Position numbers and translations under genes: made by a program. This document shows positions 34,573-63,912 of a DNA stretch of 64,000 bases, piece by piece. The notes below the pieces were generated by a model that was not told the DNA's origin, did not search any database, and was given only the letters and a program-made list of their open reading frames with translations. The stretch's first letter is position 1. Every line of letters begins with the position of its first letter. This stretch comes from an uncultured Gammaproteobacteria bacterium (GTDB lineage Bacteria; Patescibacteriota; Microgenomatia; Levybacterales; GWA1-39-11), in the NCBI GenBank assembly GCA_964425075.1, contig CAYRKM010000002.1, forward strand, positions 162,898-226,897, in the 5' to 3' direction.

Positions 34573-34701
34573 GGTACCTGAAATTGCTTATTAAAAACAA
34601 GAACCCAAGTAGGAAATACTTTACTATATACATCTACCACTTGACATTTGGGCACAAGTAGTGTATATTACCGGACTAAGCTCTTAAACAGAGCTTTTTT
34701 T

Positions 34702-36012
34702 ATGAAAAAATTAATGAAGAAATTATTCTATTCTTTAGCAATTATTCTGTTGCTGGGGACCTTCGTATCTAAAGCATTCAACGCTGCTCCTGTAGTCCTT
34801 GCACAAGGCAACACAGATGTTACTATTTGTCACGCAACAGGAAGTTCTAGCAATCCCTACTCTAAAATTACAGTTGATGACGATGCTGTTGATGGAAATG
34901 GAAACAGCGACCACAACCGAAACGACCACCAAAATGGGGAAGATATTATTCCTCCAGGACCATGGGATTGGAATGGAAGAAATTGGGATACTACTGGTCA
35001 AGCAATTTGGAACAATAACTGTGTAGTACCTAATCCTTACTCTGTAGCAATTAACGAAGTCGCATTGAGCTGTGGATCTGGTCAAAAAACAATTACAGGT
35101 ACTGCTACTTTCGGCACAGATACTTCAACTACTCTACTTGTAAAAATTAACGGAACTACAGTTATTGATAGCGAAAGCGAAACTACTTCATGGAGCTTTA
35201 ATTACAACTTAACAGCAGGAACTAGCTACACTGTTACTGCAGCTGTATATGATAGTAGCAATCCAGACGTTACTGGATCACATCAAGATACACCTAAGGC
35301 TACTGATTCATGGACATTCACAGTAAACACCTGCGTTAATGACGTTTGTACTAATCTTGATGGAATTCAGGAATCATTACCAAATGGTTATTACTTTGCA
35401 AGTGCTGGAATTTGTGCTGAAAAAACTCCAGTGTGTACTGATGTAAATGCTTCAAACTATGATTCAGAAGTAACTGCTAACGAGTACAGCAACAATAATG
35501 TTTGCCAATACCCAATTGATGTATGTACCAATATTGATGGTACCCAAACCACATTGCCTGAAGGATATCATTATGCAGGTGAAGGTATTTGTGTGCAGGA
35601 TGAAGTAGAAACAACTCCTACTCCTACACCTACTCCAACCGATGAGTGTAGTGAATTTGATGAAAATGGAATTTGTATTGAATGTGACGGCGGTGGAGAA
35701 TGTGAAGTAGTTATTGGTGGCACACCAACTCCTACACCAACTCCAACTGAAACCGTAACACCAACTCCAACTCAACCTGCAAACGTAGGTGGAGCTGCTC
35801 CTGGAGGAGACGGACTTTCAGATGGACGTTCTGATGGAAGATCTGATGGACGAGGAGGACAAGCTCCTTCAGCAGGTCAAGTATTAGGTGCTAACACAAT
35901 GGGTGCAACTGGAGACTTTGGTTCACTTATCTCAAAAATGCTCTTCGCTTTAGGTCTTACTTTTACCACTCTTGCGAGTGCGGGCCATGCAAAAAAGAAA
36001 AAATTATCATAA
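34702..36012 (+). CDS. secreted Cys-rich, TP-repeat surface protein with C-terminal tripartite sorting signal (candidate sortase substrate)
   Basis: Signal peptide MKKLMKKLFYSLAIILLLGTFVSKAFNA; two tandem CTNxDGxQxxLPxGYxxAxxGIC modules; TPTPTPTPT linkers; SDGRSDGRSDGR; C-terminus LGANTMGATGDFGSLISKMLFALGLTFTTLASAGHAKKKKLS (motif, hydrophobic segment, then basic tail). Confidence 0.6.
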   Translation: MKKLMKKLFYSLAIILLLGTFVSKAFNAAPVVLAQGNTDVTICHATGSSSNPYSKITVDDDAVDGNGNSDHNRNDHQNGEDIIPPGPWDWNGRNWDTTGQAIWNNNCVVPNPYSVAINEVALSCGSGQKTITGTATFGTDTSTTLLVKINGTTVIDSESETTSWSFNYNLTAGTSYTVTAAVYDSSNPDVTGSHQDTPKATDSWTFTVNTCVNDVCTNLDGIQESLPNGYYFASAGICAEKTPVCTDVNASNYDSEVTANEYSNNNVCQYPIDVCTNIDGTQTTLPEGYHYAGEGICVQDEVETTPTPTPTPTDECSEFDENGICIECDGGGECEVVIGGTPTPTPTPTETVTPTPTQPANVGGAAPGGDGLSDGRSDGRSDGRGGQAPSAGQVLGANTMGATGDFGSLISKMLFALGLTFTTLASAGHAKKKKLS

Positions 36013-36598
36013 TTTTTTCTCCCGCAAAAAAATTCGCAAACTATCCAAAAAGATAACCGGGAGAATCACACGACTTAACAACCCCACAGTATTTTTTGCT
36101 TTGGGTCTTCTTTTCCTTGCCCTTTGGGGAATTCGGGAAGTACACATAGCAACAAGGCTTTCATTTAGTTCTACCGTTATAACAAATGAGCTAAGTGGAA
36201 ATATCATTCATCCAGTTAAAATTTCAATTCCCTCAATTAAAACTGACCTTCCAATTGAGGAAAAGCTGATTGAAAAAGGCATTTGGCAAATAAGCAACAA
36301 AGGAGTATCTCACCTAGCAACATCAGCATATCCTGGAAATCCTGGAAACATAATCATGTATGGACACAATACTGACGAAAGACTTGGAAGGTTGCAGTTT
36401 ATAAAAACGGGTGAAATTATAAAAATAACATCAACAAATGGAAGAGTATTTGAATATAAGGTAAAAACTGTAGAAGTAGTTAAGCCCACAGATATTGATA
36501 GGCTTATGTCATATTCTGGGGAAACCTTAACTATTTATACATGTATTGGATTTGCTGATCTTAAAAGAGTTTTGGTTAAGGCTGAAAGAGTAAGGTAA
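35972..36598 (+). CDS. sortase-family transpeptidase
   Basis: N-terminal TM; IPSIKTD; His-loop HLATSAYPGNPGNIIMYGHN; TLxTC-type LTIYTCIG; conserved Arg RVLVKAE; overlaps the upstream gene by 41 nt. Confidence 0.88.
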   Translation: MRVRAMQKRKNYHNFFSRKKIRKLSKKITGRITRLNNPTVFFALGLLFLALWGIREVHIATRLSFSSTVITNELSGNIIHPVKISIPSIKTDLPIEEKLIEKGIWQISNKGVSHLATSAYPGNPGNIIMYGHNTDERLGRLQFIKTGEIIKITSTNGRVFEYKVKTVEVVKPTDIDRLMSYSGETLTIYTCIGFADLKRVLVKAERVR

Positions 36599-54563: not shown

Positions 54564-54800
54564 ATGAATATTCTAAATCAAAAAGGGAATGCTTCAGTTG
54601 TTGTTATTTTTATACTAATTGTAATTTTTAGTATTTACCTTGCAGGAGGTCCTGGTTTGCTTCTTTCCGGGGAAACTCCAAAACCAGAAATTCCTATTTC
54701 AGGCACACTACCAGGCGGCAATGCAAGTCCAATCGCCTCACCATCGGCAAGCCCCATCTCTTCTCTTTCTGCAACCATTGCACCTTCACCAACTAGATAA
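54564..54800 (+). CDS. small membrane protein with Ser/Pro-rich tail
   Basis: TM helix VVVIFILIVIFSIYLAGG then SPIASPSASPISS. Confidence 0.4.
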   Translation: MNILNQKGNASVVVIFILIVIFSIYLAGGPGLLLSGETPKPEIPISGTLPGGNASPIASPSASPISSLSATIAPSPTR

Positions 54801-54835
54801 TTTGCTATTGGTAACGTTTCCCTTCTCCCTTCTAC

Positions 54836-54864
54836 TTGCTACTCTCTACTTCCTACTTTATACT
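54836..54864 (+). promoter_or_regulatory. promoter TTGCTA-N17-TATACT embedded in a TAG-rich repeat, 6 nt before the glyA ATG
   Basis: tctacTTGCTActctctacttcctacttTATACTattcgcATG. Confidence 0.35.
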
Positions 54865-54870
54865 ATTCGC

Positions 54871-56211
54871 ATGTTAAGCTCTGATGATCCACAGCTTTAT
54901 TCTATTCTTAAAAAGGAAGATAAAAGACAACGAGATACCATTACACTAATCCCTTCAGAAAACTATGCTTCACTCACCGTTAGAAGCACACTTTCGTCCG
55001 TTTTAACCAACAAATATTCAGAAGGTTATGCGAAAAAACGGTACTATCAGGGAAATAAAAATGCAGACGACGCAGAACTTTTAGCAATTGAGAGGGCAAA
55101 AAAACTTTTCAGAGTAGCACACGTTAATGTTCAACCATACTCAGGCTCACCCGCAAATACTGCGGTTTATTTTGCGCTACTTAGACCCCTCGAGGACAAA
55201 ATAATGGGGCTTGCCCTTTCATCAGGCGGTCATTTAACCCATGGCTCACCAGTATCTTTTTCTGGAAAATATTTTAAAACCGTTTCTTTCCCAACAACCC
55301 GCGACGGACTCTTAGATTATGATGAAATTGAAAAGCTTGCAATTAAAGAGAAGCCTCAAATTATAGTATGCGGGTTTACGGCATATCCTCGAGTTATTGA
55401 TTTTAAAAGGTTCGGGGAAATTGCAGATAAAGTAAATGCATATTTGTTGGCCGACATCTCACATATTTCAGGGCTTATTGTTGGAGGTGCTCACCCTTCA
55501 CCATCTTTAGACGCTCATATTCTAATGACAACAACACATAAATCTTTGCGTGGACCCCGTGGCGCGATGTTAATGGTAACTGAAAAAGGCTTGAAAAAAG
55601 ATGCTGAACTTGCAGAAAAATTAGATAAAGCTGTTTTTCCTGGTCTTCAGGGGGGGCCACATGACAACCAAACCGCAGCAATTGCAGCAGCACTAAATGA
55701 AGCATTAAATCCCAAATTTAGAACCTACGCTCAGCAAATTGTAAAAAACTCAAAAGCTTTAGCTGCTACACTTACCTCTTTTGGATTTGAACTAACAACT
55801 GGTGGAACCGAAAATCATTTGATGGTTATAGATCTTACCAACAAAGGCGTAAATGGTGCCCTTGCTTCATATGCCCTAGAGCAAGCAGGAATAATAGTTA
55901 ACAAAAATACCATTCCTTATGACACAATGCCTCCATTTTATCCATCTGGAATAAGGATTGGAACGCCAGCTGCCACAACGCGAGGCATGAAAGAAAAAGA
56001 CATGCAAAAACTTGGAGAATGGATGCATCAAGTAATTGAAGAGGTAAAAAATTACAGTCTTCCAAAGGAAAAAACTGGATTCGGCAAGCTCACCACAAGC
56101 GAACGGCAACTATTCTTCAGAAAATTTAGAGATGAAGTCAAAAAGAATAAAAAGCTTCTTGCAATTGCAAAAGATGTTCAAAAATACATGAGAGAATTCC
56201 CTCTTCCATAA
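54871..56211 (+). CDS. glyA: serine hydroxymethyltransferase
   Basis: MLSSDD...IPSENYAS, SGGHLTHGS, PLP-Lys TTHKSLRGPRG; the track ORF start at 54640 is an upstream in-frame artefact. Confidence 0.93.
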   Translation: MLSSDDPQLYSILKKEDKRQRDTITLIPSENYASLTVRSTLSSVLTNKYSEGYAKKRYYQGNKNADDAELLAIERAKKLFRVAHVNVQPYSGSPANTAVYFALLRPLEDKIMGLALSSGGHLTHGSPVSFSGKYFKTVSFPTTRDGLLDYDEIEKLAIKEKPQIIVCGFTAYPRVIDFKRFGEIADKVNAYLLADISHISGLIVGGAHPSPSLDAHILMTTTHKSLRGPRGAMLMVTEKGLKKDAELAEKLDKAVFPGLQGGPHDNQTAAIAAALNEALNPKFRTYAQQIVKNSKALAATLTSFGFELTTGGTENHLMVIDLTNKGVNGALASYALEQAGIIVNKNTIPYDTMPPFYPSGIRIGTPAATTRGMKEKDMQKLGEWMHQVIEEVKNYSLPKEKTGFGKLTTSERQLFFRKFRDEVKKNKKLLAIAKDVQKYMREFPLP

Positions 56212-58597: not shown

Positions 58598-59809
58598 GTG
58601 CGGCTATTGTTAATGGATTCGATTAAGAAGCTTTATTCAACTCTATTTCAGCATTCTTTAAAAAGAACTATATATGTCATAGGTGGTCTTATCGTCGCCC
58701 TTTCCCTTCCTATTACTATTATCCTCACTCAACAACAGCAAGATCTTCGACAAAGAGCTACTTTTAATAACTATCCTTATACTGGCGGAGAAGGCGGAAT
58801 CACGGATAGGAGCTGTTTGTGGCAATCAGAAAGAGCAAATAGTTGTTCCTGCACTTCAAACAGCCAATGTTTAAGCAAAAATTGCACATTTAACAAATGC
58901 CAACCAAATCCTACAGCAACCCTAACACCTACGACTCCCCCTTCATCAACATTAACACCAACACCTACACGCACACCTACAAACAGCCCTAGCCCAACTG
59001 GAACAGCAAGTTGTAGTTCTTTCACCAACAAACCTGCTTCATGTACTTGTTATCTTGATTATCAATGTGCGTCAGGCAAATGTAATAAAACCAGTACTTA
59101 TTCAGGAACTTGTTCTGGACCAAGCATATCTCCCTCTCCCTCACCGTCTACGAGTTGTGGACTAACTAATCGCTCAGCAGGATGTGCTTGTGAGCAATCC
59201 ACACAATGCCAATCTGGGTTAACCTGCACCAACAATTCCTGTAGTGGTGCAAATCCTCTATCCCCAACACCCACGAATGGAGCAAATGAAACAAGAATAC
59301 TTTTGTCAGTATCCCTTCCTGGAATAAGCAACAGAACTGGAAGTGCTGCAGCTTCACCCAAAAGAATTGCTCGAGAAACCAAAGTAGAAATCTACAACTC
59401 CTCTAACCAGAAGGTAAGTGACAAAACCGGAAATCTTATCTATGACACAGCCTCAAAATTATACAAAGGCACAATAAGCTTAGGAGATGGATTTACGACT
59501 GGACAATATATTGTAAAAGTAAGAATGGATAATTCATTGTGGAGAAGAGTTCCGGGGATTGTTACAATTACTGCAAATACTGATAATAATCCAACACAAC
59601 AAATTCAACTTGTTACAGGTGACCTTGACCAAAACAACAGCTTAACAGTCATTGACTATACAAATTTCGTAAAGTGCTTTAAGGATGAATCAACCTGTAC
59701 TAGCGCGATGAAGATTCTAGCTGATTTGGATGATGATGGAACTGCCAAAGACGATTTGGATGACTTAACTATTTTACAAAAAGGATTTGCAGTAAGAGAC
59801 GGAGATTAG
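58598..59809 (+). CDS. secreted/anchored Cys-rich protein with C-terminal dockerin-like module (cassette 1, large subunit)
   Basis: TM helix, then QQQQDLRQRA; three CxCx(4-5)QCxSGxC knots; TP/SP linkers; about 100-aa beta domain; C-terminus GDLDQNNSLTVIDYTNFVKCF...DLDDDGTAKDDLDDLTILQKGF (two EF-hand/dockerin Ca-loops). The track start is GTG; ATG at 58613. Confidence 0.6.
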   Translation: MRLLLMDSIKKLYSTLFQHSLKRTIYVIGGLIVALSLPITIILTQQQQDLRQRATFNNYPYTGGEGGITDRSCLWQSERANSCSCTSNSQCLSKNCTFNKCQPNPTATLTPTTPPSSTLTPTPTRTPTNSPSPTGTASCSSFTNKPASCTCYLDYQCASGKCNKTSTYSGTCSGPSISPSPSPSTSCGLTNRSAGCACEQSTQCQSGLTCTNNSCSGANPLSPTPTNGANETRILLSVSLPGISNRTGSAAASPKRIARETKVEIYNSSNQKVSDKTGNLIYDTASKLYKGTISLGDGFTTGQYIVKVRMDNSLWRRVPGIVTITANTDNNPTQQIQLVTGDLDQNNSLTVIDYTNFVKCFKDESTCTSAMKILADLDDDGTAKDDLDDLTILQKGFAVRDGD

Positions 59810-59884
59810 ACAAGAAACTATTATGGTTATAATAGAGAGATTGACAAGAAAAATAATATACTTAATACTTAATTCCTAACTTTT

Positions 59885-60523
59885 ATGAACCTGCCTAGAA
59901 AAACAACAATACTTATAATCATACTCGCGGTTGTTACAGCCCTCTTGATATTTCTTGCCGTAACTAGTGAAACTACTCAGCAGATGCTAATTACCGATGA
60001 GCCACAACCCACTATCCCCACAGAAACAGTTGTTGAACCCTACGCTACTTTTAGCTTTTCCTCCCCTATTATTGATATAGTAAACACTCCAAGCGCAACC
60101 CAGTCGGTAGATATTGTGCTTGATACTGCAGGAAAGGGAGTTTTTGGAGCTCAAGTTGAGCTTCAATACGACCCTGCTCTTTTATTTAATGTGTCAATTA
60201 AACAACCCGCTCAGAACGCTCTGTTTGGAAATAATACTTCAGTGCTAATTAATGAAGTAAATTCCTCCCAGGGAAGAATTTCGTATGCAATAGCACTTAA
60301 CCCAAATGAAGATGAAAAAATTGGACGAGGTACAATTGCAACACTTACCTTTACGCCAAATAGGAACAGTACTACTCCAAGTACAACCGTTTCATTTCTA
60401 CCAAAGTCAGCTGTAACAACGATTGCGGGCAGCGGATCCGTTTTGAAAAACTCTACCCCACTCACAGTTATACTATCTACTCCTATTTCTCCAACGCCCA
60501 CACTGCAGCCCCCAGGTTTGTAA
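59885..60523 (+). CDS. membrane-anchored cohesin-like domain protein (cassette 1, small subunit)
   Basis: N-terminal TM; SVDIVLDTAGKGVFGAQVELQYDPALLFNVSIK...GRGTIATLTFTPN matches the cohesin beta-sandwich pattern (x-L-x-YDP-x-L). Confidence 0.6.
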   Translation: MNLPRKTTILIIILAVVTALLIFLAVTSETTQQMLITDEPQPTIPTETVVEPYATFSFSSPIIDIVNTPSATQSVDIVLDTAGKGVFGAQVELQYDPALLFNVSIKQPAQNALFGNNTSVLINEVNSSQGRISYAIALNPNEDEKIGRGTIATLTFTPNRNSTTPSTTVSFLPKSAVTTIAGSGSVLKNSTPLTVILSTPISPTPTLQPPGL

Positions 60524-60538
60524 CTTGTTTGTTGACAT

Positions 60539-62467
60539 TTGTGCTCATTTAAACCTAATATTAGAGAAAGGTTTAATTCTCTAATGAAGAAATTATTAAG
60601 AAAAATTCATCGTTATTTCTCTAAATCCAGTCTCCGGGTTATTTCTCTTCTTGGCATTACTTTTGCACTGGTTGTAACAGCTACTCTTGCCCAACAGCAA
60701 CAAGATATACGACAACGCGCAGCAGGGGATCCTGGCGGCACAGGAGATACTAAAATAAACGGCTATTACGGAAACTCAAATAATCCCGCTGTATGTTCAC
60801 CAGAAAATGGAACATCACGTACATTTGTTCACCGTTATGCCGGGTCAACCTTCGGACCCAAACTTTTTGAATGCCCATTTCAGTCAGCATGCAAACAAAT
60901 AGACGCAGATACAATTCAATGCGCAGCAACCTACGGGACAGATATAAAGTGCGGCAATTCAGTTTGTGATGCCAGCAAGCAAACTTGTGTTCTAAATCAT
61001 TTTGATAATTCGGCGGTCTGCGTTACAAAAGGAAGCGGACCGGATGGCGCTGACTGTGATAACCCCAATGGAACTCCAAATTCTGAAGTATGCAAATCCG
61101 GTATGTGTGGGGCTGATTTGAAATGTGCTTCTTCTGCAGTGGTCACTCCATCACCTAGCTCGGGCGGTTCTAGTAGCTGTATACCAACAGGCACTGTTCC
61201 TTGTGGAAATGCTTGCCAATATTGTGATGCCGGTTGGACTTGCGGGACAGACAAACAGTGTTATCCTCCAAACACAGGCGGCAGCACAGGAGGAACAGCT
61301 ATATGTACCGGTAGTGATTTTGCCTGCAATGGAAAATGTTACAGCTGTTCAAATGGAGGAAAATGCACTAATAATAATGCTTTCTGTAATTGCCCTACGG
61401 GTTTTGTGGATGGTGGTAGTAATGTCTGTTGTCCAACAAATGCTCCTAAATATTGTTCTGATGGATATTGCAGGGCAGATTGTAACCCGCCTACAACCAC
61501 TCCTGACCCTCGACCTTCTACTTTTACACTCACAACCCCCAATATGGACTGCAACAGCGCTTATCTTTCATGGGGAACTTCCACAGGCGCAACTAGTTAC
61601 TCAATAGAAACCTATATAGACCCTTCCCAAGCACCAATTGCCTCACTTTCAAAAAGCAATTTACCGCTAAACCCAACGACTTATAAGGTGACAGGCCTTG
61701 CTCCAAGCACTATTTATTATTTCGGGATTGTTGCAAATGGAACAGGAACACTAAAAAGAACGCTTGTTGTAAATGGTATAACAACTGCAACTTGTCCGAC
61801 AGCAGGTGGAGGAACCACGTCTACCGCAAAAAAAACACCTACAGCCTCAACTAGTAACACTGTCACCACACCGGTTCCACCCAAAACCGCTTCTCCTACA
61901 ATTACTACCACTATTACATCCTCTCCTGCGATAACGGGTTCTAATTCCACCGCAAATATTTCCCTTATCCTCACTCTCCCTGGCATTGGTTCGTCTTCAG
62001 ACAGCAAGAATTCCAATCCAGCAAGAAGTACAAGAACCGTTAATGTTGGATTAGTAAATTCAAATGGCGCAATTACTTCGTCCCAAGGGGATGTGAGTTT
62101 TGATAGTTCTTCAAATTCTTTTAAAGGAACTGTCAATGTGCCAAATCTAGCTTCCGGTACGTACACTGTAAAGGTACGGCTTGATAATACATTGTGGAAA
62201 AATCTCAGCAGCTCTATAACAATTGTAAGCGGTTCAAATAACCCAACAACAAGCACTGTACGGTTGGTTTCAGGTGACCTTGACCAAAACAATAGCCTAA
62301 CTATTGCTGATTACACAAATTTTGTAAAATGTTATAAGTCCCTTGCAACATGCACTGATACACTTCATACATTGTCTGACCTTGATGACGATGGGGTTGT
62401 AAAAGACGACTTGGATGATTTAACAATTTTGCAACAAGGATTTAATACACAACAACAGGGAGACTAA
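60539..62467 (+). CDS. secreted/anchored Cys-rich, FN3-containing protein with C-terminal dockerin-like module (cassette 2, large subunit)
   Basis: TM helix, then QQQQDIRQRAAG; EGF-like Cys-rich region; FN3-like YLSWGTSTGATSYSIETY...YYFGIVANG; TA/TP linker; C-terminus GDLDQNNSLTIADYTNFVKCY...DLDDDGVVKDDLDDLTILQQGF. Confidence 0.6.
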   Translation: MCSFKPNIRERFNSLMKKLLRKIHRYFSKSSLRVISLLGITFALVVTATLAQQQQDIRQRAAGDPGGTGDTKINGYYGNSNNPAVCSPENGTSRTFVHRYAGSTFGPKLFECPFQSACKQIDADTIQCAATYGTDIKCGNSVCDASKQTCVLNHFDNSAVCVTKGSGPDGADCDNPNGTPNSEVCKSGMCGADLKCASSAVVTPSPSSGGSSSCIPTGTVPCGNACQYCDAGWTCGTDKQCYPPNTGGSTGGTAICTGSDFACNGKCYSCSNGGKCTNNNAFCNCPTGFVDGGSNVCCPTNAPKYCSDGYCRADCNPPTTTPDPRPSTFTLTTPNMDCNSAYLSWGTSTGATSYSIETYIDPSQAPIASLSKSNLPLNPTTYKVTGLAPSTIYYFGIVANGTGTLKRTLVVNGITTATCPTAGGGTTSTAKKTPTASTSNTVTTPVPPKTASPTITTTITSSPAITGSNSTANISLILTLPGIGSSSDSKNSNPARSTRTVNVGLVNSNGAITSSQGDVSFDSSSNSFKGTVNVPNLASGTYTVKVRLDNTLWKNLSSSITIVSGSNNPTTSTVRLVSGDLDQNNSLTIADYTNFVKCYKSLATCTDTLHTLSDLDDDGVVKDDLDDLTILQQGFNTQQQGD

Positions 62468-62469
62468 AA

Positions 62470-62504
62470 TAGTTAGTAGTTTGTAGAAGGTAGTTGGTAG
62501 AAAG
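62470..62504. repeat. TAG-rich repeat upstream of the second cohesin gene
   Basis: tagttagtagtttgtagaaggtagttggtagaaag. Confidence 0.45.
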
Positions 62505-62519
62505 AAATATGAACAAAAT

Positions 62520-63086
62520 ATGAATCAAAGAAAAATATTATTTCCAGCAATTATTATCGTTTTGGCCTTAATAACAGTGGCTCTTATAATCTCTGCTGTT
62601 ACTACGCCTACTAAGAATAAGGCAGGTCTCAATCCCACACCTGCTACAAAACCTTATGCCTCTCTTTCATTTTCACCTGAAAAACTTTCCCCTACAGATA
62701 CAGCTTCACAAACCGCAGACATTGTAATTGACACTAATGGTAAAGGTGTTTTTGGTGCGCAAATTGAACTTCAGTATGACCCCAACATTATTTCCAATCT
62801 CACCATAGATTTGCCTGAGAACTCTTTTTTTGGTAAAAGTAGTACTGAGCTTATAAAGCATGTCTCTCAAGAAGAAGGGCGCGCAACTTTTGCAGTTGGA
62901 GTTGGGCCAAATGACGAAGAAAAAAAAGGACGAGGAACAATTGCAACTATAAAGTTTCAAATAAACCCCTCCTCTGAGAATAAAACTGAGATTACCATTC
63001 TACCGATTTCCTCAATAAATAACTTGGTAGATGAGGGCTCAGTCTTGCTTAATTCAACCACCCTACCAATAACATTTGCTCGCTAG
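62520..63086 (+). CDS. membrane-anchored cohesin-like domain protein (cassette 2, small subunit)
   Basis: N-terminal TM; TADIVIDTNGKGVFGAQIELQYDPNIISNLTID...GRGTIATIKFQIN; paralog of 59885..60523. Confidence 0.6.
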   Translation: MNQRKILFPAIIIVLALITVALIISAVTTPTKNKAGLNPTPATKPYASLSFSPEKLSPTDTASQTADIVIDTNGKGVFGAQIELQYDPNIISNLTIDLPENSFFGKSSTELIKHVSQEEGRATFAVGVGPNDEEKKGRGTIATIKFQINPSSENKTEITILPISSINNLVDEGSVLLNSTTLPITFAR

Positions 63087-63089
63087 CTA

Positions 63090-63476
63090 TTGATTTTTTC
63101 ATCATTCCTCGCTCATAATGATTACATGGCTGACCTACCTTCTTCTTCCTTCCAAGGACCACTTGCTCCCAAAATGGGCCTAGGTGATTCCTTTAAGAGT
63201 CCACTCCATGAAAATCAACAGAACTCACCGCCTCCAAAATCCAGTGGAAGAAATCTGGGACGACTCATACCATATGGGGCAATTGCTGTAGCGCTTCTCG
63301 TCCTTCCTTTAACCATAAGTCAATTAAATCAGCAGCAAGATATACGACAACGGGCATCAGAGCCTATTCCAACTATTATTCTTCCTACGGAAACCCCACC
63401 AAGTACTCCTTCACCTACTGAAGAGGTTGCAAGCCCCTCAGCCACACCTGAGGAGCCAGCAGCAGATATTTTTTAG
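63090..63476 (+). CDS. short paralog carrying only the TM plus QQQDIRQRA N-terminal module and a TP-rich tail (possible truncated family member)
   Basis: LIPYGAIAVALLVLPLTISQLNQQQDIRQRASEP then PTETPPSTPSPTEE; TTG start in the track, internal ATG available. Confidence 0.4.
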   Translation: MIFSSFLAHNDYMADLPSSSFQGPLAPKMGLGDSFKSPLHENQQNSPPPKSSGRNLGRLIPYGAIAVALLVLPLTISQLNQQQDIRQRASEPIPTIILPTETPPSTPSPTEEVASPSATPEEPAADIF

Positions 63477-63652: not shown

Positions 63653-63789
63653 AGAAAAATTCTAATTTTTAGAACAGACTCTAGCTTGAGAAAAATATAA
63701 CAACATCCTAACAGTTTTTTATTTAATGCCTTTATTGGCTAATATTTATAGCTTTTTACCTCAAATTTTGATAAACTCTACAGGTAAAT

Positions 63790-63836
63790 GGCGCGGTGGC
63801 GAAGTGAGTTCGACACTCCGCCGAAGCACAAAACAA
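63790..63836 (+). pseudogene. truncated tRNA-like fragment: first 17 nt identical to tRNA-Cys, then a T-arm-like AGTTCGACACTCCGCC
   Basis: GGCGCGGTGGCGAAGTG|AGTTCGACACTCCGCC, lying immediately 5' of the intact tRNA. Confidence 0.45.
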
Positions 63837-63838
63837 AT

Positions 63839-63912
63839 GGCGCGGTGGCGAAGTGGTAACGCGGGGGTCTGCAAAACCTCTATGCGAGGGTTCGATTCCC
63901 TTCCGCGCCTCA
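63839..63912 (+). tRNA. tRNA-Cys (anticodon GCA)
   Basis: Hand-folded cloverleaf: acceptor GGCGCGG/CCGCGCC; D-arm GCGA-AGTGGTAA-CGC; anticodon stem GGGGT/ACCTC with loop CTGCAAA; T-arm GAGGG-TTCGATT-CCCTT; discriminator U73 typical of tRNA-Cys; CCA not encoded. Confidence 0.85.

Follow-up and report, generated by a model that had tools for sequence, protein, structure and literature searches.

We describe an N-terminal protein module encoded in a stretch of 64,000 nucleotides from an uncultured bacterium (assembly GCA_964425075.1, contig CAYRKM010000002.1, positions 162,898 to 226,897; hereafter the window), in which three genes, P1, P3 and P5, specify proteins that begin with a transmembrane (TM) helix followed by the motif QQQ[DE][IL]RQRA. 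We refer to this unit of helix plus motif, which spans about 38 residues, as the module, and to any protein bearing it as a carrier. The module looks like a self-contained, lineage-specific and previously undescribed unit for N-terminal protein sorting. As judged from sequence, it is specific to Levybacteria (Microgenomates, candidate phyla radiation), where hundreds of otherwise unrelated surface proteins carry it at their N-terminus. A preliminary description of the three window copies had put forward a dedicated N-terminal sorting or processing tag, and this proposal is supported by the spread of the module over unrelated cargo, by its synonymous codons and by its coexistence with classical signals. 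We see an even chance that the module is a dedicated cleavable sorting signal, which would be read on the outer face of the membrane and cut after the alanine that closes the motif.

Distribution, anatomy and cargo of the module

One genome per species, for a total of 185,579 species, was scanned with the degenerate DNA pattern CARCARCARGAYHTNMGNCARMGNGC. This strict pattern returned 73 sites at 71 loci, and at 34 of the sites (32 loci in 26 assemblies, 36-49% GC) the motif directly follows a strongly hydrophobic segment that begins an open reading frame (ORF). The other 39 loci, with a median GC content of 64%, no helix and mostly short reading frames, are chance hits. By name, the 26 positive assemblies comprise Levybacteria/Levyibacteriota (9), Patescibacteria group (5), Woesebacteria (1), Parcubacteria (1) and third-party annotation (TPA) assemblies (10), and a metagenome scan added 55 further loci. 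Using L-numbers for the DNA stretches examined and four-digit P-numbers for proteins of the representative library, we note that 12 loci (L001, L002, L009, L010, L011, L023, L024, L026, L033, L037, L042 and L056) derive from ten TPA_asm metagenome-assembled genomes titled 'uncultured Gammaproteobacteria' or 'Pseudomonadales', which show Levybacteria-like genes and synteny at 38-48% GC and whose organism names look wrong.

A profile built from the three window N-termini only was searched against 1.84 billion representatives, yielding 260 clusters (50% identity) at E≤1e-3, almost all of them matched at residues ~10-80. Among the matches listed, all were N-terminal except two spurious repeat hits, and 141 of the 150 best matches contain Q-[DE]-[ILV]-R-x-x-A within their first 160 residues; those members with the Glu variant QQQEIRQRA that bear an organism name likewise belong to Levybacteria. 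A local hidden Markov model (HMM) identified 140 carriers in 87 of the 88 DNA stretches scanned (612 kb, window included), and each of the 139 matches scoring at least 19 bits is N-terminal, with none internal and the module ending at median residue 51. A word-indexed homologue search with a short N-terminal alignment, unsuited to a 40-residue query, gave only two candidates. The preliminary description had raised the possibility that recent duplication confines the motif to neighboring paralogues, and had suggested looking elsewhere for a TM helix with QQQD[IL]RQRA; the 26 assemblies, 260 clusters and 140 ORFs retrieved, together with the unrelated mature parts of the carriers, reveal no such confinement.

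The anatomy of the module was established by aligning 180 distinct N-termini on the final Ala of the motif (position 0). Because the anchoring pattern itself specifies Q-6, R-3, Q-2 and A0, these four are invariant by construction.

Positions -34 to -31: S-x-K-R (K 60% at -32; R 57% at -31, or 82% if K or R is counted)
Positions -30 to -10: 21 hydrophobic residues, fixed length
Position -18: A (62%)
Position -17: I/L
Position -16: P (91%)
Position -14: T (92%)
Position -11: L (64%)
Positions -9 to -6: Q
Position -5: D (81%) or E (17%)
Position -4: I/L/V
Positions -3 to 0: R-Q-R-A
Position +1: A/S (79%)
Position +2: E/G (61%)
Beyond +2: no conserved residue

The extended consensus thus reads S-x-K-R, a 21-residue TM helix with A-[IL]-P-[ILV]-T, QQQ[DE][IL]RQRA and [AS][EG], where the n-region consensus continues into S-x-K-R-T and the helix has a Kyte-Doolittle mean of 2.2-3.1 over 19 residues. 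A subset of carriers possesses a conserved amphipathic n-region (M-x-x-h-K-x-x-h-x-x-h-F-S-S-Y-K-R-T), and divergent forms of the motif (QESRSRA, QELRSKA, QDPRGRA) occur in the same loci. Across 28 loci every synonym is used at the conserved positions (five codons for Arg, four for Pro and four for Ala), and this synonymous variation indicates that the peptide is under selection and the DNA or RNA is not. When the mature parts of two carriers are unrelated, their motifs are 76% identical and their helices 30% identical; in homologous pairs with 49% identity in the mature part the helix is 75% identical, and hence evolves more slowly than the cargo.

The cargo is diverse. Carriers map to at least 44 Pfam families, and every family listed is of extracellular or cell-surface type, including Dockerin_1 (28 of 109 carriers, or 26%, in a separate set from P1 and P3), SdrD_B (12), fn3, CarboxypepD_reg, SpaA, Big_13, VWA, CARDB, SLH, subtilase (S8), phosphoesterase, PA14 and LamG. 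Dockerin-like tails are present on 45 of the 140 carriers, 24 of the same 140 show the exact ...GD-COOH end, and 14 of the 140 have a C-terminal TM helix, in several cases preceded by LPPTG, LPSTG or IPVTG; overall, about one third of the carriers have a C-terminal attachment of their own. In three cases, a dockerin-like protein that lacks the module but comes from one of these genomes begins with a classical AxA signal peptide instead, and the two signals therefore look interchangeable. A different ending is seen in five carriers (L003:4649-6058, L011:3867-5264, L037:3715-4410, L042:784-1854 and L063:5821-6552), where a second, C-terminal helix follows A/S-P-G-S-A or N-P-G-G and has no basic tail (...GGLVLFVL-COOH). 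These tails, which may be another C-terminal sorting signal, differ from the LPXTG-type tail plus KKKK on the sortase-adjacent protein of the window.

PpiD/PrsA-like foldases with SurA_N_3 and rotamase domains make up one of the carrier families, and the TM helix of this family aligns with the membrane-anchor end of Pfam SurA_N_3. The family shares with P5 a cytoplasmic N-terminal peptide, NS[PS]F[NQ]GPL[TA]P, which is invariant in 18 PpiD-like orthologues that are 39-50% identical to the reference over their full length. Searching PpiD-like homologues for N-termini from outside the clade returned only 19 close relatives, all of them bearing the motif.

The three carriers and their cohesin neighbors

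The window carriers alternate with two cohesin genes on the + strand, in the order P1, cohesin protein 1, P3, cohesin protein 2 and P5; lengths are given in amino acids (aa).

58598..59809, + strand: P1, carrier, 403 aa from the GTG at 58598, or 398 aa from the ATG at 58613
58661..58765, + strand: P1 module, with K22-R23, TM helix T24-T44 (58667-58729, containing L-P-I-T), QQQQDLRQRA (58730-58759), then T-F
59885..60523, + strand: cohesin protein 1, 212 aa, N-terminal TM anchor and no motif; PF00963 Cohesin at 31.0 bits against a cut-off of 24.1
60539..62467, + strand: P3, carrier, 642 aa from the TTG at 60539, or 627 aa from the ATG at 60584
60635..60727, + strand: P3 module, with R33, TM helix V34-A51 (60638-60691), QQQQDIRQRA (60692-60721), then A-G
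62520..63086, + strand: cohesin protein 2, 188 aa, N-terminal TM anchor and no motif; PF00963 Cohesin at 26.1 bits against a cut-off of 24.1
63090..63476, + strand: P5, small carrier, 128 aa, or 116 aa from the ATG at 63126

P1 combines Cys-rich repeats, an immunoglobulin (Ig)-like region and a dockerin-like tail with the C-terminal end ...RDGD-COOH, and returned no match in a Pfam search of the whole protein. In P3, a Cys-rich region is joined by an Ig-like region, a weak match to fn3 and a dockerin-like tail whose last residues are ...QQGD-COOH. The 36 N-terminal residues of P3 are identical to those of a 627-aa protein from the representative library (P0001), and an exact look-up of P3 among public contigs returned no record. 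The two proteins are 47% identical over their C-terminal 171 aa (E 3e-48) and 37% identical over their N-terminal 54 aa, and on this comparison are paralogues. P5 consists of a cytoplasmic N-terminal peptide with SSFQGPLAPK, a TM helix (L59-L79, 63264-63326, containing L-P-L-T), the motif QQQDIRQRA at 63330-63356 and a 39-aa Pro/Thr-rich tail. The junctions of helix and motif read ...SLPITIILT-QQQQDLRQRA-TF in P1, ...VVTATLA-QQQQDIRQRA-AG in P3, where V-V-T stands in place of the usual P-x-T, and ...LPLTISQLN-QQQDIRQRA-SE in P5, and the respective modules score 61.8, 47.6 and 57.3 bits with the local HMM. A six-frame scan of the window detected no copy of the motif beyond these three.

The hydrophobic helix and near-identical motif that the preliminary description had reported in three proteins are therefore borne out by the ORF check, as is its observation of a nucleotide core common to two copies: the 17-mer CAAGATATACGACAACG occurs exactly twice in the window, at 60701-60717 (P3) and 63336-63352 (P5), compared to 0.03 matches expected from shuffles, none of which (0/100) reached two. 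The copies also differ synonymously within the motif (CAA/CAG for Gln, AGA/CGC/CGG for Arg, GCT/GCA for Ala). Speaking of all three as large family members was a mistake, because P5 has only 128 aa and nothing in common with P1 and P3 beyond helix and motif. Its affinities lie with the foldase family: residues 9-82 of P5 align with residues 10-80 of the PpiD-like carrier P0285 (E 2e-10), and short relatives of P5 are found elsewhere (P0003, P0015, P0021, P0099 and P0104). P5 (63126-63473) and the ~302-aa foldase family (P0047, P0277-P0293; L053:589-1518; L056:4862-5770) share the TM helix, the motif and an invariant N-terminal peptide, M-x-P-x-x-x-N-S-[PS]-F-[NQ]-G-P-L-[TA]-P, and the foldase gene in L053 and L056 sits where P5 sits in the window. 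It seems that P5 is the N-terminal module of a PpiD/PrsA-like foldase, retained as a separate small protein.

Both genes between the carriers exceed the PF00963 gathering score and qualify as cohesins, and cohesin protein 1 scores only 3.6 bits with the module HMM. Motif-less TM-anchored cohesins of the same family as cohesin protein 1 adjoin carriers in 25 loci, the cohesin partner always having a motif-less TM anchor. The carriers had been called dockerin-bearing, a term that holds insofar as the tails of P1 and P3 are homologous to the dockerin-like tails of 27 other carriers (E down to 7e-16), which follow the pattern ...DLNDDGKVDExDLNxLxxGFxxRxGD, and fails at the level of family models, given that neither tail matches PF00404 (Dockerin_1) or NF041540 (dockerin_GC), even when searched in isolation at max_evalue 10. 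Dockerin-like tails in the window (59570-59806 and 62228-62464) and on 24 carriers elsewhere have a Cys...Cys loop between two Ca-loop repeats, many of them with a C-terminus that is exactly [RK]-x-G-D; the P1 and P3 versions are too divergent for either model. Across the 88 stretches, the recurrent neighbors of carriers are dcd, tmk, thyA, folA, glyA and a CBS-methyltransferase, which constitute a housekeeping synteny, together with TM-cohesins and a CAP-domain protein. A widely recurring order is CBS-methyltransferase, carrier, cohesin and further genes, beside dcd/tmk/thyA/folA/glyA, and by this order the window belongs to Levybacteria.

Known signal classes and competing readings

The preliminary description had not recognized the module as a known signal class. 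Pfam-A and NCBIfam 20.0 hold no model for it, whether whole window proteins, 109 carriers or isolated N-termini at max_evalue 10 are searched, and literature searches over 8 million papers for the motif strings and related keywords returned nothing relevant. It also coexists with other signals. The window encodes classical signal peptides at 2075-2875 (...NIAFA/QS, where a slash marks the putative cleavage site) and in the protein at 34648-36009, as well as plain, motif-less anchors on an S41 protease, an HtrA-like protease, a VWA protein, the cohesins and a sortase (PF04203, 35972-36595), and the module is found on three of its ~14 N-terminally anchored or exported proteins. Since classical AxA signals and motif-less TM anchors are used in the same window, the module constitutes a separate, third class. 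The classical signals of carrier genomes have c-regions similar in length to that of the module (e.g. TKTSYVSA/Q, NQNIAFA/Q).

A separate observation concerns the sortase region (34648-36595), where a 454-aa Cys-rich secreted protein with a classical signal peptide and the tail ...LGANTMGATG, a TM helix and KKKK overlaps the start of the sortase gene. The two are likely a sortase-substrate pair with a non-LPXTG motif.

The module shares with classical Sec signals cleaved by signal peptidase I a basic n-region, a hydrophobic core and extracellular cargo, with Ala at putative position -1 and small or acidic residues following at +1/+2. It departs from them in its near-invariance, in a core that is slower-evolving than the cargo and of fixed length (21 residues, with P 91% and T 92%, as opposed to ~10-15 residues, or a short variable h-region of ~7-15), and in replacing the AxA pattern with Gln at -3 and Arg at -2 and -4; in this cleavage-site numbering, Ala -1 and Gln -3 are found in 180 of 180 N-termini, both fixed by anchoring, and Arg -2 in 92%. 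The length and hydrophobicity of the helix fit a single N-in TM segment of ~20 residues, as in type II signal anchors. PpiD-type N-terminal anchors are a particular case, one carrier family being PpiD/PrsA-like with its helix at the SurA_N_3 membrane-anchor end, but PpiD anchors have no conserved juxtamembrane motif, whereas that of the module is common to unrelated proteins.

A close parallel exists with the YSIRK-G/S signals of staphylococcal and streptococcal surface proteins, which are thought to route secretion and not merely allow export. Both are lineage-restricted, unusually long N-terminal signals with an extra conserved motif, used on surface proteins, many with C-terminal wall attachment, alongside ordinary signal peptides. 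The YSIRK motif ([YF]SIRKxxxGxxS), however, lies in the n-region before the core and the signal ends in a canonical AxA, while the main motif of the module lies after the helix, on the trans side, with P-x-T inside the helix, and the module ends in QRA; neither library returned the YSIRK family (PF04650 / TIGR01168) for the N-terminal modules at max_evalue 10. The C-terminal signals of the LPXTG/sortase, PEP-CTERM/exosortase, PGF-CTERM/archaeosortase and GlyGly-CTERM/rhombosortase systems resemble the module in combining an outer-face motif, a TM helix and an inner basic cluster into a lineage-specific tag on many unrelated surface proteins. The module mirrors this arrangement to the N-terminus (basic, TM, motif; 139 of 139 modules are N-terminal), has a motif of 9-10 residues instead of 3-5 and is linked to no dedicated enzyme gene in the 88 stretches. 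A transpeptidase acting on the module would take the signal fragment and not the cargo, and only release is therefore plausible. Among the remaining classes, the lipobox L-[AS]-[GA]-C finds no counterpart in a module without Cys (LPAM_1 matched one sequence only, E 1.3), and type IV prepilins (class III) are set apart by the absence of G/F-T-L-I-E, by conservation at the outer helix end and by the lack of any match to NCBIfam prepilin models.

If the module is a dedicated cleavable signal, its basic n-region and very hydrophobic 21-residue helix would direct insertion by the signal recognition particle and Sec with the N-terminus inside, placing the polar motif just outside the membrane. There, a dedicated membrane-associated partner would read the motif together with the conserved A-[IL]-P-x-T that the helix has close to its outer end, most likely with endoproteolytic release after the Ala (RQRA/[AS][EG]) as the outcome. 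Freed proteins would then be kept at the surface by their own C-terminal devices: dockerin-like tails would bind the motif-less TM-anchored cohesins encoded next door, LPXTG-like tails would be attached via sortase, and SLH domains would provide a further hold. Functionally, the module would be a specialized signal peptide of the YSIRK kind, with the sortase-signal logic of charge, TM helix and motif mirrored to the N-terminus.

Several findings point to cleavage. The final Ala, itself fixed by anchoring, and the conserved [AS][EG] resemble positions -1, +1 and +2 of signal peptidase I sites, and conservation ends abruptly at +2. About one third of the carriers have their own C-terminal attachment, and the cohesins that partner them retain plain anchors; where a dockerin-like protein lacks the module, its signal is a classical, cleavable one, and local classical signals have c-regions of like length. 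The presence of a sortase and a likely substrate with a classical signal in the same window also agrees with a dedicated signal. Other evidence weighs against this reading. With Gln at -3 and Arg at -2/-4, the module departs from the (-3,-1) rule of signal peptidase I, and the housekeeping enzyme may therefore not cut it. The fixed 21-residue hydrophobic span is like a stable anchor, and its slow evolution (75% identity versus 49% in the mature part) is the opposite of what ordinary cleaved signal peptides show. One carrier family is PpiD/PrsA-like, with its TM helix at the SurA_N_3 membrane-anchor end, and the conserved cytoplasmic peptide that it shares with P5 suggests a functional N-terminal part. 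The preliminary description had proposed looking for a co-conserved candidate protease, and no active protease is consistently encoded beside carriers in the 88 stretches; the sole signal peptidase homologue adjoining carriers lacks the catalytic residues.

This homologue, the one found in the DNA stretches scanned, is a fusion of RDD (PF06271) and signal peptidase I (PF10502) domains and lies directly upstream of two carriers in L079. Such RDD-Peptidase_S26 fusions form a small discrete family, present in Levybacteria, with 18 clusters at E≤5e-51 as against 1e-33 or weaker for ordinary peptidases. The following were located:

L079:442-1377, RDD-S26 fusion
L131:9986-10969, RDD-S26 fusion
L134:4569-5498, RDD-S26 fusion
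L127:10001-10957, RDD-S26 fusion
L127:13602-14546, RDD-S26 fusion

The fusion adjoins carriers in L079, L131/132 and L134, and does not in L127-130, L133, L135 and L136; it falls inside the carrier/cohesin island in three of eight lineages. It is always 3' of a partner gene encoding a 630-860 aa TM protein, with stop and start overlapping, and the partner helix has G-I-P-x-T. Alignment with SipS and ordinary Microgenomates peptidases reveals that each of eight fusions lacks the catalytic Ser, the catalytic Lys or both; they are apparently inactive peptidases, which therefore cannot be the cleaving enzyme, and we rejected them in that role. As a lead, the fusion may be a signal-binding pseudo-peptidase. 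A small gene of the M50 (site-2 protease) family on the same strand, just upstream of carriers, was identified at L093:5855-6505, L101:8780-9424 and L116:4886-5233. It was discarded as a general reader or protease, being limited to these three stretches of the QQQEIRQRA lineage, which have one shared synteny (def, fmt, rpmB-like).

The serious rival to cleavage, to which we assign a clearly smaller and still appreciable probability, is a retained signal-anchor with a localization tag. The helix would stay uncut, and the P-x-T helix and juxtamembrane QQQDIRQRA would bind a common membrane partner (perhaps the translocon, a scaffold or the inactive RDD-signal-peptidase homologue), gathering the surface proteins and the PpiD-like foldase at one envelope site. 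A helix fixed at 21 residues and more conserved than the mature domains would be accounted for in this way, as would the Gln at -3, the nine near-invariant polar residues, which exceed the needs of a peptidase site, the joint presence of the module and a conserved cytoplasmic peptide in the PpiD-like foldase and P5, and the occurrence of fusion genes without the Ser/Lys dyad in the carrier island of three of eight lineages. An AlphaFold2 model of the PpiD-like carrier also presents TM segment and motif as one continuous helix (residues 49-76), apart from the folded domain that begins at residue 85, but at a low-confidence predicted local distance difference test (pLDDT) of ~52 this isolated helix does not decide between the cleavage and anchor models. 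Retention would, on the other hand, leave the third or so of carriers with dockerin-like tails, LPXTG-like tails or SLH domains tethered at both ends, and comparable dockerin-like proteins use cleavable classical signals and many proteins of the same genomes (cohesins, S41 protease, HtrA, VWA, sortase) have plain anchors without the motif.

We consider it improbable that the module is an ordinary Sec signal peptide in which QQQDIRQRA merely reflects the local c-region preference of the housekeeping signal peptidase I, and neither a dedicated factor nor special routing is involved. The motif is always Ala-ended, small or acidic residues prevail at +1/+2 and no dedicated enzyme is encoded nearby, but canonical AxA signals with short h-regions (e.g. 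NIAFA/QS, SYVSA/QA, PLSAFA/QE) are common in the same window and loci, which implies a housekeeping enzyme of normal specificity. Gln is disfavored at -3, and nine-residue near-invariance, an intramembrane P-x-T and a slowly evolving TM helix all exceed peptidase specificity.

A twin-arginine translocation (Tat) signal, with S-x-K-R as a degenerate twin-arginine motif and the post-helix Arg as a Sec-avoidance signal, is far less probable still. The long n-region, the basic pair before the helix and the basic c-region residues are in keeping with it, and the N-terminus of P1 gave a single, weak Tat-related match to positions 3-61 of NCBIfam PhoD (E 0.016, 13 bits), where the Tat signal of PhoD lies. 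The S/T-R-R-x-F-L-K motif and weakly hydrophobic core of Tat signals are nonetheless absent: the basic pair is K (60%) and R (57%), with KK, QR or SR in many carriers, and the hydrophobicity of the helix greatly exceeds what Tat would allow. Searches of both libraries with the N-terminal modules at max_evalue 10 gave no Tat-signal model, the cargo is Cys-rich, Ig-like or dockerin-like and not made up of cofactor proteins, and no TatC was seen in the DNA examined. Finally, recent duplication or gene conversion among neighboring paralogues, or a DNA-level element, might be suspected from three copies within 5 kb, two with an identical 17-nt core, but is refuted by synonymous differences inside the motif in the window and the 28 loci, by the unrelatedness of P5 to P1 and P3 outside the module and by the hundreds of carriers that other genomes encode and whose mature parts are unrelated, leaving it next to no probability.

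At its broadest, and as a speculative possibility that we hold to be unlikely, Levybacteria may possess a dedicated new N-terminal sorting pathway mirroring sortase/exosortase systems. A membrane receptor or processing factor, for which the catalytically dead RDD-signal-peptidase fusion is a possible candidate, would read the P-x-T helix and QQQDIRQRA and gather or release cohesin-dockerin, LPXTG and adhesin-like proteins along with their own PpiD-like foldase, making the attachment surface of probably host-dependent ultrasmall cells. N-terminal signals with a lineage-specific motif are already known; what is unusual here is the placement of the motif after the helix and the strength of its conservation. 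Signal predictors and annotation pipelines have no model for the module, and a large share of the Levybacterial surface proteome may consequently carry the label 'membrane protein' or 'hypothetical' at present. With a profile of the module, carriers could be flagged in one step, including the cohesin-dockerin surface system of these uncultivable, probably host-attached bacteria. If a dedicated reader or protease exists, it would define a new sorting route, based on an N-terminal tag with its key motif after the membrane helix, and provide a handle on envelope building in candidate-phyla-radiation cells. If the module is only a peculiar signal peptide, it would still indicate that recognition by signal peptidase can stray a long way from the AxA rule.

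Other features of the window

Two further observations were made in the vicinity of the carriers. The ORF for serine hydroxymethyltransferase (glyA) at 54640-56211 has a listed start ~100 codons upstream of the conserved MLSSDDP... start, and this N-terminal extension is probably untranslated. Downstream of P5, a tRNA-Cys gene is located at 63839-63911, and its first 16 nt, GGCGCGGTGGCGAAGT, are repeated just upstream (~63780-63830), where no tRNA is called; the repeat may be a tRNA fragment or a degenerate duplicate.

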